From Octopus vulgaris (lineage: Eukaryota), in assembly GCA_951406725.2 (NCBI GenBank), contig OX597826.1, forward strand, positions 26,474,001 to 26,538,000: DNA of 64,000 bases, given 5' to 3'. The position numbers and the translations under genes were made by a program. A model generated the notes under the pieces. It saw only the letters and a list, made by a program, of their open reading frames with translations, was not told the DNA's origin and did no database searches. Below, in pieces: positions 7,683 through 60,238 of the stretch. How positions within the stretch are numbered: the first letter of the stretch is position 1; the number at the start of each line of letters is the position of its first letter.

Positions 7683-8056
7683 TGGAGGCGCAATGGCCCA
7701 GTGGTTAGGGAAGCGGACTCGCGGTCGTAGCATCGCGGTTTCGATTCCCAGATCGAGTTTTGTGAGTGGTTACTGAGAGAAAAAAACCTAAAGCTCCACG
7801 AGGCTCCGGCAGAGGGTGGTGGTGAACACTGCTGTACTCTTTCACCACAACTTTCTTCCATTCTTCCTTCCTGTTTCTGTTGTACTTGTATTTCGAAGGG
7901 CCTGCCTTGTTATACTCTGTGTCATGCTGAATCTCCCCGAGAACTAGGTTAACGGGGGTACACGTGACTGTAGAGTGCATGTTAATTTCACGAGCAGGCT
8001 GTTCCGTTGATCGGATCAACTGTAACCCACGTCGTCATAACCGATGGAGTGCCACC
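7683..8056 (+). mobile_element. tRNA-derived SINE family C
   Basis: A-box tggcccagtggttagg, B-box gtttcgattcc; related pieces at ~9975-10230 and ~41175-41298 (minus). Confidence 0.75.
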
Positions 8057-20463: not shown

Positions 20464-20643
20464 TTAGATAGATATATAGATAGATAGATATTCGTCAGAT
20501 TGACTGCTAACTCCAAAAGTATTTTCATTCTCTCAGTTTATTTCCTCGTGTTCCTTTCTGTTGAAAAGCGTCACTAGTATGAATTGGAAGCGATCCCACA
20601 CATCTTATTTTTGCAATAAGTATGCTGACTGATTACACAAAGA

Positions 20644-20931
20644 TACCCACCCTTTTCACTTTATATTTAGGTACTATGATTTCATAGCATAAAATGTGTG
20701 CAATTTTTGCTTAGATTAGTAGATGGTAGTGTGTTTAACTTTTGTAAAGAGAATTTTAACCCTGCACAATATATTGACTATAGAACATATAGTCTAATAT
20801 CAGAGCATATAAACCTCCATAACGGAAAACATGGGTAATGGTACAGGGGATAATAGATTTTCCCTAATAAATGTAACATATTTTCCGGCAAAAAGGATAA
20901 TCCCTAAGTTCAGGAGAAAAATGGGTGGGTA
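20644..20931. mobile_element. Possible small MITE
   Basis: Imperfect inverted ends tacccacccttttc / gaaaaatgggtgggta, bounded by TA. Confidence 0.4.
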
Positions 20932-21144
20932 CATTAGCGTAATTGGTTAGCAAGCAAGAAAGTAATAGCTGTGGGTTCGATTCGCACGCATGCAAAGTCC
21001 CATTGGTTTTTTTCATTACAAGGTATATATGCCTCTAATATTTGATTAGTTTTCTATAGTCAGTATACAGTGAAGGCTTTTAATTTTACTCACAAACATA
21101 TTCCAGTCGAAACCGTCCCCATTTCGTGCAGAAATCACACACAC

Positions 21145-28229: not shown

Positions 28230-28725
28230 CATCTACTTCCATTTCTGTAAGCTTATTCTATTTCACCTCTCACTCTAGACCTCTCCACTATTAGTTTACT
28301 GCTAATTTCTTTCTTTCTCCTCCTTCTTTTTCTATAAACTACCTTTGACGTTATATCTACTAACGATTAAAAAAATCTTGTTAGCGTTCCCTTCATCATA
28401 TACACAGTCATCACATTCTGTTAAAATGTCTTATTGATGTGTTTGGTTTCTTTCTTTCCTTGATGAGAAGATTGCATTGTTTTACACCATTTTGTTCCGT
28501 CTTCGAAACATATGTCGGAAGTAAAATAATTTGAATAACACCGGCGTTTAACTCCATTAATTTATCTATATATATATGTGTACATGTATATATATATATA
28601 TATATAAAATTGCATATGCATTAATTTTTATATACAAACTGATGACAGAATGAAGGATGAACTTTATATGATATATTTTATGTATTTCTGTACGCATTTG
28701 AGTACAAATATGTGCGTGTGTGTGT

Positions 28726-30216: not shown

Positions 30217-32560
30217 AATCAGGTGTCCTTTTGATCCCAAAAGATGAACATTGCACGCTGTTGTTTCGGACACTTCTCCTGGAGTTGACGGGCACGAACG
30301 ATCATATCAATTGTGCCTCGAGAAGTTCGAATACCACACTGAGACTCAGGGAGTACGTTTTCTGCGAGGATGAGGAAGCGATTGGGTAGGATACGGGTGA
30401 AGATCTTACTTCCAATACTCAAGAGAGATGTCCCGATAGTTGTTGCAATCCTCTCAGTCTCCCTGCTTGTAGATGGTGATGATAGTTGCATCGCGGAAGT
30501 CGTTCGGGGGGGGGAGGGTTCTTGCTTTTCCAGATCCTGATGATAAGGAGCATCAAATGATTTGTCAGCTGAGGACCTCTGTGCATGAAAAACTCAAACG
30601 GGATGTTGTCTGGTCCTGGAGCTTTCTCCGGCATCATGTGCGCAAGTGCTTTGTTGATCTCATGGCTTGAGGGTGGCAGGGACATCCGATTGCGGATGGG
30701 GAGCTGTGGGGTGTTTTGGAGGAGATCATCAGGAGTGCGTATGTGGTCGTTAAGTATGCACTCGAAATGGGACTTCCAGCGATCGAGGTTTCCATGGGTG
30801 TCGGTTATAGTAGAGCCAGCTGCGTTCTTCAGGTCATCCACTAATGACCTTGTAGGGCCGAAGATCTTGGTTGCAGCATAAAAGCTGTGCAATGGTCCGG
30901 ATAGTTTTGAGTCTCCCATGGCACAGATATTATGAGCTTCTCAAATCCCTCGCTGGCATTCCGTTGATGCTTGCTGGTGTTTACTTTTGTTCTCCGCAGT
31001 GGCATGGTTCTCGGAATTTGGTTTAGAAAACATGGGAGATGGTTTCATCATTCTCGTCAAACCAGTCTTGGTCCTTCTTTCGGGCAAGGCCGATTTCCTC
31101 CTCGGCGACAGCGGTCATTGCTTCACGAAGGCTGGTCCAGCGATTCTCAATAGAGCTTGGCTCTGGGAGGTTCATCAGATGTATCTCAATAGATTCCCTG
31201 AAGTCTTGGGATGCCTATGAGATCCGGTGTTTGGCGCAATCGAAGCGTCAATACGGGATACTTCCTGTGACCCGCTTTGGTGGACTGCAGATGTGATGGT
31301 AAGAAATAAGAAGGCGGTGGTCCATCATCTGTATCAGGCATGGAGCGGGTGATACGTACATCTCCTCTGTCACTGTCACTGGATCTTGTTAGAAAGTGGT
31401 CGAGAATGTACCAGTGTTTAGACAATGGGTGTTTTCAGGTTTTTTTGTCGGGTAGGGAGACGAAATATGCAGTTGGTCATGACGAGTTCGTGCTCGCCGT
31501 AAGGCCCAAGAGGAACTAGCCATCGGCATTGCATTTCCCAATGGCGTGGTGACCAAGAATGCCATTCCACAAACAATGGTCACTGCCGACTCTGCCGTTA
31601 AAGTTCCCCAGCACGACGTGTTTGTCATGTGCAGGTACTGTCTGGATGGTGCGGTCTAGCAGGTTGTAGAACGAAGTTTTGATGTCGTCTTCAGATGTGA
31701 GTGTAGGGGCATACACAGATATCAGCCTAAGGAATCTGTCCCGAAAGAGTGAGATCCGAATAGTCATCAGGCGCTAACTGACAGCAGTTGGGACGAGTCT
31801 GTGTTGATCCAAGAGTTGCGTTTTGATGGCAGAGCCAACTCCATGGATGCGTGGTTCATTAGCATTCTTCCCCTTCCAAAATATGGTGGATTTGGAGCCA
31901 GCTTCTCTGATGCTGCCTTCTCCAGGAAGCCTAGTCTCGCTCAAGTCTGCCACATCGATGTTGAAGCCGTCAAGTACCTTGCTGACGTGGGCTGTATGTC
32001 ACTCTGTTCGATTAATGTCACTCTTGTCCTGAAGTGTGCGGATGTTCCAGGCCACGAAATTGAGAAGTTGTGAAACAGAGGATTTAATTGAGTTCAGACC
32101 GCTAAGTGGGAGGTCCGCCAGCAACGGTATGCTGGCTAGATCGAGTTGCCGTGTCCGATGTTTACACCACCTTTTCTAGGGTCTTCCCCTTGAGGGGTGG
32201 GCTGCGGCTATCCTAAGGGCCCAGCCCAGTCACGACTCTAGCTGCCGAACTCCAATATCACGGCTATTCACTGGAGAGCGACTGAGATCCGCCGCCAATG
32301 TGTGGTCACGGACTAGAGGCTTCCAGCTTTCCAGACCTGCCTCTGGTCCCCACGATACCATCGACATTGGGCGTTTTGAGACAGATTAGAAAGATGAAGG
32401 AATTCATGGAGTAAATTGTTTATAAGTGATCGTGTAAATAAGTGATCGTGGCTGCACTTGGCCAGGAATGTCTCCATGGCGGATCAAGTATCAATGGAAC
32501 ACACAATCTTTTGGAATCACTGGAACACGCAAGCTCTTCCACCACAAGGGACGACCATCA
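30217..32560 (-). mobile_element. Decayed RTE-clade LINE (5' UTR, AP endonuclease, start of RT)
   Basis: Minus-strand NFVAWNIRTL, DLSETRLPGEGS, MTIRISL..ISVYAPT, LGNFNGRVG, KHWYILDHFL, KAPGPDNIP and LPESQCGIR..RGTIDMI..ARQLQEKC. RTE-like 5' motif ccttgtggtggaagagcttgcgtg near 32530-32550. Multiple frameshifts. Confidence 0.9.
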
Positions 32561-40165: not shown

Positions 40166-40495
40166 GCTAGCTAGGACAGGATGCTTCATTTTGCAATCAT
40201 ATGTACTTTAAACTACCAAGTAAATAAGGGGTTCGAAAGACAATACTGTGATTTACTTTTGTGTTAACAGTGTGTTGCTCTTATATGTAAGTTATCTGGC
40301 TCTCAACATTATAGAGTAATCTGGAGAGTTAAACTTTGAAATGCCTCTATTTAGCTTTGAATTGTTTAGGTCACTAGACTGCAGCCATGCTGGGGCATCG
40401 CCTTGAATTATTCTAGTCGAACGAATTGACCCCAGTAAATTCATTTATATTTTTTAAGCCCAATAAGAACCAAAAGATGAAGGAACAACAAAAAG

Positions 40496-41174
40496 GTGAG
40501 TTATAGAGTAAACAAATTTTTACAGTGGGAACCGTAGTAAAAACAGGGAGAGAGAAATTGTATTATCAACAATAAAAGGGTAAAATAAATTAATTATTAA
40601 TTAATTTCACCAATTAGTGTTCAGTATGTAAAAGGACCATTCAAGGTATATTTAAAATATTACGTTATATAATTAGGGCTCAGTAAAATAATATACTTTA
40701 CCAGACACTGAAACTTTTAGAAATAGCAGCCAAAAAGTTTTATTAGCTATTTCTTCTACTATAAGAAAAGTCTCCCAGATAGTGTTTACTCAAAAATAAT
40801 TCACGCAGATATGGAGGGAAAAATAACAAATTATCACATGTACAAAGATCATTTGAGAACGTTAACGTTTCTAGATTAGTTGAATTTAAAACTCAACACA
40901 ATACAATTTCTCTCTCTCAGTTTTTACTACGGTTCTCACTGTAAAAATTTGTTAACTCTATAACTCACGTGGATGGAAGCGGGAGGAATGCAGAGCCTCA
41001 TTCGTACTTTTTGAATTTGCTGGTACTGGCAGTTGAAAATGGTTTGTCTGAGATTACTCATATCAGATGGGTATGTTCGATTTTTAGTGCTCTCAAATCC
41101 AAATATAAGAAATATTGAGCTGACGAAGGAAGTGTTGAGTTTTAAATTCAACTAATCTAGAAACGTTAACGTTC
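40496..41174. mobile_element. Hammerhead-bearing inverted/permuted element, copy 1
   Basis: Interleaved inverted pairs ~40496-40564/40900-40968 and ~40857-40899/41132-41174; homologous to the 59 kb element. Confidence 0.75.
41115..41174 (+). ncRNA. Type I hammerhead-like ribozyme truncated just after its cleavage site
   Basis: TTGAG-CTGACGA-A-GGA-agt-GTTGAGT-tttaa-ATTCAAC-taa-TCT-A-GAAA-CG-ttaa-CGT-T. The missing stem I 3' strand (CTCAA) is seen in the inverted copy near 40852-40857. Confidence 0.65.
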
Positions 41175-41402
41175 ACCGTTACCTCCTGCCAGAGCCGCGT
41201 GGAACTTAGGTATTTTGCTCATAAACACCCACATCACCTGGTTTGCAATTAGAACCCGCGAGACCGCTGCTCTAGCCAATAGGCCATGTGCCTCCACTTA
41301 CATATACACACACACAGACATACACATACATACACACAGACACACACACACATTTATGTTGTACGTCTGTATACATAAATATAGGTTATATACACCATGC
41401 GT

Positions 41403-41823
41403 AAGGCGGCGAGCTGGCAGAATCTTTAGCACGGCGGGTGAAATGCTTGACGGTATTTCGTCTGCCGCTACGTTCTGAGCTCAAATTCCGCCGAGGTTGA
41501 CTTTGCCTTCCATCATTTCGGGTTCGATAAATTAAGGACCAGTTACGCACTGGGGTCGATGTAATCCACTTAATCCATTTGTCTGTCCTTGTTTCTCCTC
41601 TCTGTGTTTAGCCCCTTGTGGGTAGTAAAGAAATAGGTATTTCGTCCGTCTTTACTTTTGGAGTTCAAATTCTGCTGAGGTAGACTTTGCCTTTCATCCT
41701 TTCTGGATCGATAAATTAAGTACCAGTTACTCAGTGGAGTCGATGTATTCGACTTAATCCCTTTGTCTGACCTTGTTTATCTCGTCTATGTTTAGATAAA
41801 CATATTGTGGGCAATAAAGAAAT
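41403..41823 (+). mobile_element. SINE family B partial dimer
   Basis: A full unit followed directly by a second unit starting at ggtatttcgtc. Confidence 0.8.
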
Positions 41824-42533: not shown

Positions 42534-43190
42534 ACAAAAGAAAAATTCTAATGCCATATATGCCGAAAAAAAGACAAAATTGTCAATAACCATTATAATT
42601 TATGCGCCTCGAAACAAACCGATAGAAATTTCTAAAAATTCCGTTATTACCGTATTGGTCCCAATTTCGGGGTTAATTCATAAGAAGTTTTCGAAAAAAG
42701 AAATTTTTCCTACATTGGTTGTAAATTTAATAGTGTTCACTTCCGGATTCTCTCTCTCTGTGAAAGTTTCTAGATCGAATCACACGTGTCTCGAGATGTG
42801 CCGAAGATTTTCTATCTTTTATATATTTGGGGTACTTAGGTCTGCTCAGGACTTAGTGCTTGCTTTTTCCATGGGTATGAGTAAGTATTCCATTTATGTC
42901 TTACGTATTTATCGCTGAAGAGGGGAAAATTCTTATGAATTAACCCCGAAATTAGGACCAATACGGTAATAATGGATTTTTTAGAAATTTCTATCGGTTT
43001 GTTTCGAGGCGCATAAATTATAATGGTTATTGACAATTTTGTATTTTTTTCGGCATATTTGGCATTAGAATTTTTCTTTTGCCCTTATTTTGTAAGTTAT
43101 TAATAAATTTAACCTTTAAATGTATTTTTTTATATGCTGGCCATTGATAAATTTTTTTTTTCGAAAAATAAAATTTATCCTACATTAGTT
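42534..43190. mobile_element. Hammerhead-bearing inverted/permuted element, copy 2, inside (AT)n
   Basis: Inverted arms ~42534-42690/42925-43082; direct 30 bp redundancy 42691-42720/43161-43190; (AT)n on both flanks. Confidence 0.8.
42909..42969 (+). ncRNA. Type I hammerhead ribozyme
   Basis: Stem I TTATCG/CGGTAA; core CTGAAGA; stem II GGGG-aaa-ATTC-ttat-GAAT-taa-CCCC; GAAA; stem III ATT(a/g)-ggac-CAAT (fully paired in the inverted copy); predicted cleavage after ATA at 42963. Confidence 0.8.
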
Positions 43191-51576: not shown

Positions 51577-52118
51577 GCCCTGATGCAGTACCATGCAGTG
51601 GCTCTCATGGCTTCTGATCTTAACTGATTGGAAGTGCTATCATGTACATTGTTTTGTATAAAAGATGGGCTACAGCAAATATTCTGCTCAATACCACAGA
51701 TTTGCTAGTCAGTTGTTTAACCTTAACCAGTTGACCATGTCCCTTGGTGGATGACGATATGTGCATCTCTGATCACGAGCAGAAGTAGTGGGGGAGCATC
51801 ATAGCCATGTGTTGAAAGCAATTCTTAGAGGTTTGGGTAATTCACCTTAGGAAACACGGGTGATTCGTTCAACGTCCTTAAACAATTCAGGGACCTTTTG
51901 AGCGGGATGGGCTACTCGACCAGAAGAAAATTCTAACTGGGCCCCACCTGCAAGGTCATGTGCTGTTTATCTTGATATGAGATCACCATGTCGCGCACAT
52001 ATGGTTGTGATGCATGTGTCTGGTGTACCCTTATCATACAGGTAGTCATGATGGGTATACTGGGCTTTGTATATTTTACCCCAGTGTCACTTTGATGGCA
52101 TGCACTGCTCTCTCACTC
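51575..52118. mobile_element. ~540 bp non-coding interspersed element embedded in (AAT)n
   Basis: Sharp boundaries with (AAT)n on both sides; collinear with a second copy at ~50725-51485. Confidence 0.75.
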
Positions 52119-52165
<47 letters not shown>

Positions 52166-52181
52166 TAATAATAATAATAAT

Positions 52182-54208
52182 ATATCACAAAGGCTGAACA
52201 AGCACCTGGACGAAAACAAACTGTTCCCAGAAGAGCAGAAAGGATGCCGCAAAGGCTCATATGGCTGTAAAGATCAACTAATGATTAATAAAGCCATAAC
52301 TAAAGACAGCCACAGAAAGAAGAAAGGCCTCAGTATGGCCTGGATTGACTACAAAAAGGCGTTTGAAAGCATCCCCCACACATGGATCCTCGAAACACTA
52401 GCCATTAACAAAGTAACACCAACAATCATAAAATTCATAGAGCACTCTATGAATAAATGGCAAACAGTCCTACACCTCCAAACAAAAGACGGACTCATGA
52501 AAACCAAAGACATCCCCATTAGAAGAGGAATATTCCAGGGAGACACGCTCTCTCCACTCCTTTTCTGCTTGGCACTGTCACCTCTATCTGATATGCTAAA
52601 TAGAACTGGATGCGGATATAAATGTTACGGGAAAACGATCAGCCACCTTTTATATATGGATGACCTAAAACTATACGCTGCAAATGACAAACAGCTGGAA
52701 ACACTATTAAAGACAGTTCATGGATTTACCAAAGAAATAGATATGAAATTTGGATTAGAAAAATGCGCCAAAGTAACCCTGAAAAGAGGAAAACTAGTTA
52801 AGAGTAACAACATCACACTAGATAAAACAAATGAAATAAAAGAATTAGACCAAAGCCAAACTTACAAATACTTAGGAATCCATGAACTAGATAAGACACA
52901 ACACACACAAATGAAAGAGAAAATAAAAAAAGAATATTATAGACGAGTTAGATCAATACTAAACACAGAGCTCAATGCTAAAAACAAGATAATAGGTATC
53001 AACACTTTAGCTGTCCCAGTTATAAGTTACAGCTACAATATCCTTAACTGGACACGAAATGAACTGACCAAAATAGATAGGAAAACAAGAAAAATAATGA
53101 CAGGATCTAGGATGCATCACCCAAAATCTGACATAGAAAGACTATATATACAACGTATAGAAGGTGGTAGAGGCCTTATACAGCTGGAAAACTACTATAA
53201 AATAACCACCATAGGACTGCAAAAATATCTACTTCAGAAGGAAGGAAAACTGATCCAGATAGCGGCAAAACACGAGCAAAACAAAAAACTGTTCTCAGTA
53301 TTTAAGGAAGCTGACAAATACAAACAAGAAATCATACCACCGAATAAACATGAAGAAGAAGAAGATGAAGAAACAACAAAAGCTATAAAACAAATGAAAT
53401 CCAAACTAAAAATAGAACAGCAACGAACCATGATAAAACGATGGCAAGAAAAACCCCTTCATGGTAAATACTGGACTAAACTAAACGCAAAAGAAATAGA
53501 CAAAGAAAAATCCCAGCAATGGTTGAGAAGCTCAGGACTCAAAGCAGAAACAGAGGGATTTTTAATTGCAGCACAAGACCAAAGCCTCCCCACCAGAAAT
53601 TACCAAAAACATGTAATAAAAAGAAATATTACAAGTAACTGCAGAATATGTGGAGATGGACAAGAAACAATAAATCATATTATCTCTAGCTGCCCAGTCT
53701 TGGCTAAGAAGGAATATATTCAGAGACATGACAGAGTTGGAACCTACATACATTGGAAGCTATGCCAACATTATGGAATAACAACAGAAAAAAGATGGTA
53801 TAGGCACACACCAGAAAAGGTCACAGAAAACGAGAAAGCAACCATACTCTGGGATATGCCGATACACACAGATAGAGAAATTAAGGCCAACAGACCAGAT
53901 ATAGTTGTCAGAGATCATGAAAAAAAAAATGCTTTCTAATTGATGTATCAATACCGGCTGATGACAACGTGTCTCTAACAGAAATGGAGAAACTCTCAAA
54001 ATACAAAGACCTGGAAATAGAGGTAACTAGAATGTGGAATCTGAAAACAGAAACAATTCCTATCATAGTAGGTGCATTAGGCATGATAAAAAAATATTCA
54101 GACAAATACATAACAAAAACACCAGGACTTACAAACACATATAACATACAGAAAATTGCACTACTAGGCACTGCACACATCCTACGCAGAACACTTTCCA
54201 TACAATAA
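52182..54208 (+). pseudogene. RT/RLE polyprotein, N-terminally truncated, single frameshift in the A10 run at 53920-53929
   Basis: About 580 uninterrupted codons, then a frame change that rejoins ORF 53969-54208. The ORF-track start at 52014 is upstream non-coding sequence plus AAT repeat. Confidence 0.88.
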
Positions 54209-59003: not shown

Positions 59004-59054
<51 letters not shown>

Positions 59055-59240
59055 TAACAATGAGGGTCTTTGCAACAGGTTGCTAGACCACATACAGAAA
59101 GCATTAGAAATAGCAGCCAGACGACTGTTATTTCTTTTACTACAATAATAAGTGTCCCACAGACAAACGGTATTTGTAACTCACTATGGCAAAAAAAAAA
59201 ACAACGAAGAAAAACAACGAAATCAAACAGTGTCCGGTCA

Positions 59241-59300
59241 ATTATGGACGCATACGTTTCTGGATTAGAATCAGGGATTCATTTCCTTCATCAACATAAT
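59241..59300 (-). ncRNA. Type I hammerhead-like ribozyme (inverted copy)
   Basis: Reverse complement of the motif at 59647-59704, with stem III ACG-tatg-CGT and a GTC site. Confidence 0.7.
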
Positions 59301-59646
59301 ATTCCGATAAATAAATCTAGAAATGCTAGGAAATCTTACCCTCCATATTCCGAACATGCGAAATCGGGGCATACAGAAGCTAATCAGCATATCCACATTT
59401 ATATAGACAAGTGAATTCGTATCTCCCTCCAGAATTTCTCCCACGTGAGTCACAAATAATACTGCCGAAAATGAATTCGTAGTTCCGTCATATGGGGAGT
59501 AAAATAATCAATACAGATAAAGGGTGAAATATAATTCATTTAATGAAATCAACAAATTTCACCAAGTAGTTTTTCGGTATGGAAAAGGACCATATTCGGT
59601 ATGGAGGGTAAGATTTCCTAGCATTTCTAGATTTATTTATCGGAAT

Positions 59647-59704
59647 ATTATGTTGATGAAGGAAATGAATCCCTGATTCTAATCCAGAAACGTGCGTCCA
59701 TAAT
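59647..59704 (+). ncRNA. Type I hammerhead-like ribozyme (variant core)
   Basis: Stem I ATTATG/CATAAT; core TTGATGA plus A; stem II GGA-aat-GAATC-cct-GATTC-taa-TCC; A-GAAA; stem III ACG-tg-CGT; GTC site at 59698. Confidence 0.7.
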
Positions 59705-60238
59705 TGACCGGACACTGTTTGATTTCGTTATTTTTCTTCGTTTTTTTGCCATAGTGAGTTACAAATACTGTTGTCTGTGGGACATATTTTTGTAGTAAAA
59801 GAAATAACAGTCGTCTGGCTGCTATTTCTAATACTTTCGGTATGTGGTCTAGCAACCTGTTGCAAAGACCCTCATTGTTATAATCATATATAATTTTACC
59901 GAATATGGTCCTTTTCCATACCGAAAAACTACTTGGTGAAATTTGTTGATTTTATTAAATTAATTATATTTCACCCTTTATCTGTATACATGTGATACCT
60001 ACAATCACTACAGTAACATATATAGCTTAAACATAGAAAGAAGTCACTATTTTCCTATCATCGTAATCGTTTGTATGGTCTTATCTCTTCTTGTACCCTA
60101 TTTCTATCATCTATACTAAGCATCGCATTCAACATTTCAGATAATTTTGAATCTCAGAACATAGTCCTTCCGTAACGCATCCTCTCTCTGTTTTCGCTAG
60201 AAGCATTAAGTAACAAAATTTAAACTGATCACCAAGGG

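Follow-up and report, generated by a model that had tools for sequence, protein, structure and literature searches.

Two inverted arms of a short hammerhead-bearing unit in Octopus vulgaris, with likeness to retrozymes and to Penelope-like insertions

The element at 40496–41174 and its neighbours

Within a 64,000-nt stretch of Octopus vulgaris DNA (contig OX597826.1; hereafter the window, in which all positions are counted), positions 40496–41174 hold two inverted arms of one short repeat, which we refer to as the 40 kb element. The feature is real, and an observation first made in a sequence-only reading of the window was confirmed. Arm ends are numbered relative to c, the predicted cleavage nucleotide of a hammerhead motif. 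The left arm (40496–40899, minus strand, 404 nt) runs from 40899 to 40496, or c-41 to c+362; its 5′ end lies inside hammerhead stem II, it crosses the cleavage site at 40858^40857, and its 3′ end points outward. The right arm (40900–41174, plus strand, 275 nt) begins at c-273, equivalent to c+294 on the unit, and its 3′ end falls at the cleavage site (c-3 to c+1). At the inner junction, 40899/40900, the arms abut bluntly by their 5′ ends. Two stretches are covered by both arms and therefore appear as inverted repeats: 40496–40564 with 40900–40968 (69 nt, 4 differences, 94%), which closes one side of the unit, and 40857–40899 with 41132–41174 (43 nt, identical, 100%), which closes it across the ribozyme. 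These overlaps of 69 and 43 nt yield a closed unit of 567 nt, counted from one cleavage site to the next. The arms differ at 4 of the 112 overlapping positions, and RNA editing of the template was rejected as a source of these differences, which carry no A/G excess.

A related element lies at 59043–59987 (the 59 kb element), with a minus arm at 59601–59043 and a plus arm at 59600–59987. It has two complete hammerhead motifs with U3, (TA)n at its left end, and a unit of 553 nt, or 565 nt with the left copy. The sequence-only reading had called the 40 kb element a diverged relative of this one, with shared blocks, the same cyclic order, a unit of about 565 nt and different breakpoints, and our analysis bore out each of these points. 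Every block it had named is present at the expected place. The two elements have in common a 16-nt exact word (40717–40732), further exact words at 40603–40613 and 40630–40640, the likewise exact block ccacgtgagt (40963–40972, minus strand) and a block with one mismatch (40865–40879). The units agree in length (567 nt versus 553–565 nt), and the breakpoints differ (c-41/c+362 and c-273/c+1 versus c-354/c+204 and c-98/c+289). Aligned end to end, the rebuilt monomers are collinear, with 357 identities in 604 columns (59%; 69% of aligned bases) and a score of 176 versus -47 ± 15 in 300 dinucleotide shuffles (best 4; z about 14). The reverse-complement alignment scores -60, and z is 11.6 when the hammerhead is left out. 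In five blocks of 120 columns, 0, 0, 0, 3 and 0 of the 300 shuffles matched or beat the observed score; since each block beats at least 297 of 300 shuffles, the collinearity spans the whole unit. By this alignment, the two elements are diverged members of the same family.

A third element of similar build, from a distant family with a 470-nt unit, occupies 42535–43189 (the 42.5 kb element). Its minus arm (42692–42535) is an inverted arm of 156 nt, its plus arm (42688–43189) comprises one unit plus about 31 nt, and (TA)n flanks it on both sides. It has a canonical hammerhead core at 42915, with an AUA triplet and a G-C base of stem II, and its unit shows weak similarity to the other two (z 2–3). 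An nhmmer search of the window for more copies returned the known arms only, plus one internal self-match (E 2.1). The GC content of the units is low (31–35%), and none of the three has a protein-like reading in any of its six frames, the longest open stretch being 71 codons in the 567-nt unit.

The surrounding window is AT-rich animal DNA, dense with microsatellites and with SINEs that we take to resemble octopus families; tRNA-type SINE heads in which the A and B boxes can be recognised lie at 7686 (+), 25300 (+) and 12542 (-), and a SINE-like repeat at 41452–41795 contains a partial tandem duplication (period 184 nt, 83%). A LINE-type reading frame at 52011–53936, beside (AAT)n runs, matched Pfam RVT_1 and zf-RVT and presumably resembles Dong/R4 elements. 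Its reverse transcriptase (RT) has homologues in at least 120 proteins; most of the named matches listed come from corals, arthropods and a fish, and there is no cephalopod among those listed. A broken LINE RT fragment at 30222–30940 (-) gave a weak RVT_1 match. RT matches in the window were limited to two fragments that look like ordinary LINEs. No autonomous Penelope-like element (PLE) was found in the window, where a Pfam search of 138 frames (8 + 130, for the most part the longest among 175 frames that had high complexity and at least 60 codons) yielded no GIY-YIG match, and phage and plasmid collections gave no match.

The hammerhead motif and the predicted RNA fold

The right arm ends in a predicted type I hammerhead motif (41115–41174, plus strand), judged by the core consensus in the available part of PMC3088659. 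It consists of the 5′ strand of stem I (41115–41119), the core CUGACGA (41120–41126), a long, interrupted stem II (41128–41158) with one unpaired A on either side, GAAA (41160–41163), stem III (41162–41173), which is a perfect 12-nt palindrome, and a GUU triplet with the predicted cut at 41173^41174. All core residues are in place: C3 U G A N G A9 at 41120–41126, G12 A A A15.1 at 41160–41163 and U16.1 H17 at 41172–41173. The 3′ strand of stem I (40853–40857, minus strand) is present in the left arm only. As a full stem I requires both arms, neither genomic arm holds the whole ribozyme; in the rebuilt unit, stems I, II and III can form around the core, and the constrained fold costs 2.5 kcal/mol. 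Stem III of the 40 kb copy is predicted to pair far more strongly as a self-dimer (-13.4 kcal/mol) than as a hairpin (-0.5 kcal/mol), and the self-dimer is the stronger in 6 of 6 copies. A long stem II, an extra nucleotide after A9 and a palindromic stem III that pairs as a dimer are also traits of PLE hammerheads, as described in the part of PMC4209133 available to us.

The pair 10.1–11.1 beside the core, which served as a filter in PMC3088659 (available part), is lacking in the 40 kb and 59 kb elements, where A stands opposite A, and is G-C in the 42.5 kb element. In the 59 kb hammerhead copies, U3 stands opposite G8. Cleavage is doubtful because of the A opposite A in the 40 kb element and the U3 opposite G8 in the 59 kb copies; among predicted Xenopus retrozymes, 8 of 9 did not cleave in vitro, according to the accessible text of a preprint (bioRxiv 10.64898/2026.07.22.740005). 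A hammerhead descriptor gave 6 matches in the window, 4 of them within the three elements, and 2 matches in 10 shuffled windows combined. The other two matches, at 28460 and 37406 (+), have U3 and no inverted repeat around them and are probably due to chance. Rfam as a whole had 0 matches at gathering score in the 64 kb window, and between 40300 and 41400 there were 17 weak Rfam matches, none to a hammerhead or other ribozyme.

Folded as circles, the units gave z scores of -3.7 (40 kb) and of -5.2 and -5.0 for the other two (40 shuffles each). As 2 of 26 control windows (10 shuffles each, drawn from the first 34 kb only) fold as strongly as z -3.7, the folding z alone was rejected as proof. 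The strongest-folding control, 20623–21096 (z -5.9), contains two inverted-repeat pairs of 76%, one of 45 nt and one of 34 nt, spaced by about 265 nt, and is possibly an old MITE or a rearranged insertion.

Predicted independently of each other, the 40 kb unit and the 59 kb unit have parallel folds: first a long-range stem, next four or five internal helices, then a long hairpin and the ribozyme. A counterpart at most 3 alignment columns away exists for 141 of the 186 predicted pairs, with exact coincidence in only 43 of the 186. Under a neutral-divergence null in which the differing letters were permuted, including a version with the substitution matrix preserved, 300 runs gave mean pair counts of 10–21 and maxima of 30–54, and the observed energy was never reached. 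On the sequence-only alignment the alifold conservation index was low (0.27), with a consensus energy of -37.3 versus -21.8 ± 5.7 in 25 column shuffles. In the hairpin and ribozyme region of the three elements, 19 of 41 consensus pairs have changed on both sides, compared with 8.3 in letter shuffles and 1–5 in slid controls, a test that leans toward structure because the structure was derived from those three sequences. The long predicted hairpin lies just upstream of the ribozyme (41015–41098, plus strand) and occurs in all three elements with low sequence identity. The long-range stem is predicted to join its 3′ strand (40965–40994, plus strand) to 40798–40830 (minus strand) in the left arm. 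In 29 of the modelled pairs, one base lies in sequence exclusive to the left arm and the other in sequence exclusive to the right arm, and this speaks for the rebuilt unit as a single RNA. The predicted fold fits circular and linear RNA alike and leaves the ribozyme domain largely free, at 2.5 kcal/mol to open the core. A fold common to the 40 kb and 59 kb units along their whole length, despite 69% identity, is what these models indicate, and it is new here.

Motifs of the kind known from animal promoters lie 130–250 nt upstream of the ribozyme (40926–40971, 59442–59448, 42746–42800): an E-box, CACGTG, in all three elements, and ZNF143-like and ETS-like words. These motifs are base-paired in the predicted fold. 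Since TCACGTG is paired in this way and is not enriched in the window (4 matches versus 4.6 expected), we make no promoter claim for it. A bacterial promoter scan, which is not applicable to animal DNA, gave results at chance level.

Breakpoints, flanks and the right end

In all three elements the two arms have the same outward polarity relative to the ribozyme, with 3′ ends outward. The insertions amount to 1.2–1.7 units, the inverted arms overlap by up to 316 nt, and at the inner junctions the arms overlap by 0, 2 and 5 nt. The two 5′ ends lie 232–256 nt apart on the unit in 3 of 3 elements, or 0.41–0.50 unit (40899/40900, 42688–42692 and 59600–59601); this half-unit spacing has a nominal p of 0.006, post hoc and with n = 3, and loss of short-spacer inverted repeats could contribute to it. 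The inner breakpoints are nearly equal in different families, at c-41/c-273 in the 40 kb element and c-39/c-275 in the 42.5 kb element, and the left arms of these two stop in hammerhead stem II. Within the family, the 3′ ends are scattered (c+1, +204, +289 and +362) rather than placed at two fixed sites 30–40 nt apart. The stagger is 85–108 nt in the two neighbours by our end table, a measure that does not apply to the 40 kb copy. As regards AT-rich or microsatellite targets, (TA)n adjoins 3 of the 6 ends overall and 0 of 2 in the 40 kb copy. The right-arm 5′ end of the 40 kb element (40900) aligns about 5 nt from the right-arm 3′ end of the 59 kb element (59987), a coincidence that possibly marks a natural opening point of the unit.

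Both flanks of the 40 kb element are broken repeats. On the right is a tRNA-type SINE head (41171–41300, minus strand) that lacks its 3′ part and has 4 nt in common with the element's end; on the left, a fragment of a different SINE-like repeat (40350–40465) is followed by about 30 A-rich nt. The match of the right arm to the unit ends at 41174, 1 nt beyond the predicted cut, which is where the sequence-only reading had placed the stop; however, the window's two intact SINE paralogues agree with 41171–41174 as well, so the true boundary may lie anywhere from c-3 to c+1. The extra C past the cut site is explained by this overlap of the element's end with the SINE. The left flank, tested as a continuation of the right-flank SINE, gave no such continuation (p 0.63–0.77), the reconstruction of an empty site was rejected, and no target-site duplication was found at the 40 kb element. 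Because the SINE has kept its head and lost its 3′ part, the flank is discontinuous and there is no duplication, DNA was lost here, at insertion or later, and an earlier caveat that a later deletion could have set this boundary was a fair one. The SINE is 78–80% identical to its paralogues; as the divergence between the arms is far lower, the SINE is probably older than the insertion.

Of the six arms in the three elements, five continue across an intact cleavage site and one stops with its 3′ end at the cut; a 5′ end at c+1 occurs in none of them. The probability that at least 1 of 6 ends falls by chance in a 5-nt window is about 5.5%, calculated post hoc. The earlier proposal that the right arm stops as a self-cleaved RNA 3′ end would is supported in part, in that the boundary interval contains the cut, but it is weakened by the five arms that read through and by the SINE overlap, which blurs the end.

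We judge the chances about even between two accounts of this end. In one, the right arm was primed at the self-cleaved 3′ end of a linear monomer, the remainder of the SINE was deleted at insertion and the copy is complete. The position of the boundary, the tiling of one unit by two arms with small overlaps and a SINE that probably predates the insertion all agree with this account, and in the available parts of the respective papers linear monomers exist for other retrozymes (PMC7229834) and weak priming at a template 3′ end was seen in vitro (PMC11167929). Against it are the single end out of six at the cut site, the coincidence required for the fourth base in common with the SINE, the atypical ribozyme core and the anole data, in which, as far as the accessible text of PMC11167929 goes, no read stops at the cut site. 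In the other account, the arm ends where it does through internal priming on uncut RNA, or through a later microhomology deletion in which the remainder of the arm was lost together with the 3′ part of the SINE. This accounts fully for the 4-nt overlap and agrees with the truncated SINE, the lack of a duplication, the broken repeat on the left and the absence of (TA)n from both ends of the copy, but the break must then have fallen, out of about 530 nt, within the very 5 nt at the cut site.

Classification, mechanism and meaning

Judged by its unit, the 40 kb element has the features of a non-LTR retrozyme: it is short and non-coding, with one type I hammerhead, no LTR and no Pfam match in the frames scanned. 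Its low GC content, a predicted RNA that is strongly self-paired (z -3.7, equalled by 2 of 26 control windows, with a fold common to its relative) with the ribozyme largely free, and a presumed dependence on PLEs likewise recall metazoan non-LTR retrozymes as described in the available parts of PMC7229834 and bioRxiv 10.64898/2026.07.22.740005. In the same sources, retrozymes are tandem hammerhead repeats that are expressed as circles and probably moved by PLEs, and the preprint argues that they derive from PLE terminal repeats. Unlike these, the octopus elements are dispersed insertions of 1.2–1.7 units in two inverted arms instead of head-to-tail arrays, and the stem II base of the 40 kb element is atypical. 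No head-to-tail array with at least two complete ribozymes occurs in the window, the longest same-strand run being 1.07 units. The units of 470–567 nt are longer than the 170–400 nt of invertebrate retrozyme RNAs and within the range of 51–972 bp in the preprint, as given in its accessible text.

Judged by its insertion, the element resembles a PLE. All three elements contain an inverted, 5′-truncated copy placed head to head with 3′ ends outward, and PLE insertions often have such a copy, a tail and a microsatellite target (PMC8557442 and PMC8969392, available parts). Ends that are staggered, (TA)n beside 3 of the 6 ends (though not in the 40 kb copy), the lack of a clear target duplication and templates that read through the cut site may be further points of likeness to EN+ PLEs and pLTR hammerheads in the parts consulted of PMC8557442, PMC4209133 and PMC11167929. 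Unlike EN+ PLEs, there is no RT/GIY-YIG ORF (none between pLTRs was found in the frames scanned), the unit is self-closing, and the stagger, where it applies, is about 95–110 nt or more versus 30–40 nt. Pairs of minimal hammerheads in Schistosoma mansoni, in which two copies lie 100–700 bp apart on opposite strands, are also similar, but those are tied to truncated PLEs, and neither a closed unit nor a conserved fold is reported for them in the available part of PMC4209133. The 40 kb element would work like a non-LTR retrozyme and is inserted like a PLE; with no tandem array in the window, no PLE ORF and no 10.1–11.1 pair, it is a canonical member of neither class. Twin priming of L1 also joins an inverted 5′ piece to a sense piece, often via short microhomology. 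The octopus elements differ from such insertions in having no poly(A), no target duplication, and arms whose overlap reaches 316 nt and whose combined length is more than one unit.

We consider it probable that the 40 kb element is one insertion of an ORF-less, non-autonomous RNA of about 565 nt and of non-LTR-retrozyme type, mobilised in trans by a PLE. We infer four steps. Transcription of a source locus would yield a folded RNA at least one unit long. A PLE RT-endonuclease would nick both strands of an AT-rich target and extend both 3′ ends, starting internally on the RNA. As 5 of 6 arms read through the cleavage junction, most templates would have had it intact, as an uncut precursor, a multimer or a re-ligated circle. 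Finally, two incomplete cDNAs would be joined at their growing ends, bluntly in the 40 kb copy and via overlaps of 2–5 nt in the other two elements, to give a head-to-head insertion of 1.2–1.7 units. The right arm of the 40 kb copy may have been primed at a self-cleaved end that paired with the SINE over 3 nt, or may reflect internal priming or a microhomology deletion. According to the available part of PMC11167929, the anole PLE protein, the single Penelope-like protein examined in vitro, can cleave both strands and extend both, initiates internally and does not need hammerhead cleavage.

It is unlikely, in our estimate, that the pieces are instead terminal repeats of an autonomous PLE, with the closed unit remade at each insertion and no independent non-autonomous family. 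The route would be an internal start in the upstream repeat, extension to the RNA 5′ end and a jump to a second RNA. Internal initiation just downstream of the hammerhead was shown for the anole PLE (PMC11167929, in the part available), the 5′ end at c+294 aligns about 5 nt from the 59 kb 3′ end at c+289, and the predicted helices fit a linear RNA opened at c+289/c+294. However, both diverged elements align continuously there (blocks 240–360 and 360–480), arms cross the region seamlessly (the left arm here to c+362, and the 59 kb left arm from c+211), and no start or end of an ORF is apparent in six frames or by Pfam. A DNA-level element of MITE or foldback type, or a satellite unit reshuffled by template switching during replication, with the hammerhead incidental, would suit the long inverted arms beside TA runs in the 59 kb and 42.5 kb elements, but we regard it as highly improbable, given that the inverted repeats are staggered by 95–110 nt or internal rather than fixed and terminal with a target duplication, that breakpoints differ between relatives, that the polarity relative to the ribozyme is the same in three elements, and that it is the ribozyme strand on which the RNA fold is conserved (MFE as a circle -130, versus -88 antisense).

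The preferred reading, a retrozyme-type RNA moved by a PLE, differs from the tandem known kind in that the element is dispersed and inverted, and pipelines requiring two consecutive tandem units would for this reason miss such elements. In a literature search that covered few subscription papers, we found no paper on cephalopod retrozymes or on closed, ORF-less units inserted as inverted arms. The families may already be catalogued as non-autonomous Penelope or unknown repeats; the Octopus vulgaris repeat annotation lists Penelope-like, Dong-R4, RTE and SINE families, and neither ribozyme nor retrozyme is mentioned in the available part of PMC13282606. Movement of animal retrozymes by PLEs has been proposed from co-occurrence and pLTR similarity, with no mechanism given in the accessible parts of PMC7229834 and bioRxiv 10.64898/2026.07.22.740005. 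Short closed units with a PLE insertion signature link retrozymes and Penelope-like proteins directly. As every copy preserves two sites of priming and two of stopping on its unit of about 565 nt, a genome-wide table of ends could decide whether the templates are RNAs with self-cleaved ends, uncut precursors or circles, a question that concerns the role of PLE hammerheads. The conserved fold outside the ribozyme suggests RNA elements that are possibly recognised by a PLE protein.

A bolder reading, which we hold to be doubtful though conceivable, is that the 40 kb copy is the intact footprint of two PLE reverse transcriptases on one retrozyme RNA, and that the family consists of abundant, folded circular RNAs with a dimer-dependent hammerhead. 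If so, priming would have taken place at the ribozyme junction for one enzyme and on the far side for the other, with each overrunning its partner by 40–70 nt and the arms together tiling exactly one circle. With 3 elements in 64 kb, the class would then be abundant; its multi-domain structure would be conserved and its hammerhead atypical, tandem-repeat searches would have missed its inverted spread, and the half-unit spacing of 5′ ends would be a signature of the mechanism.
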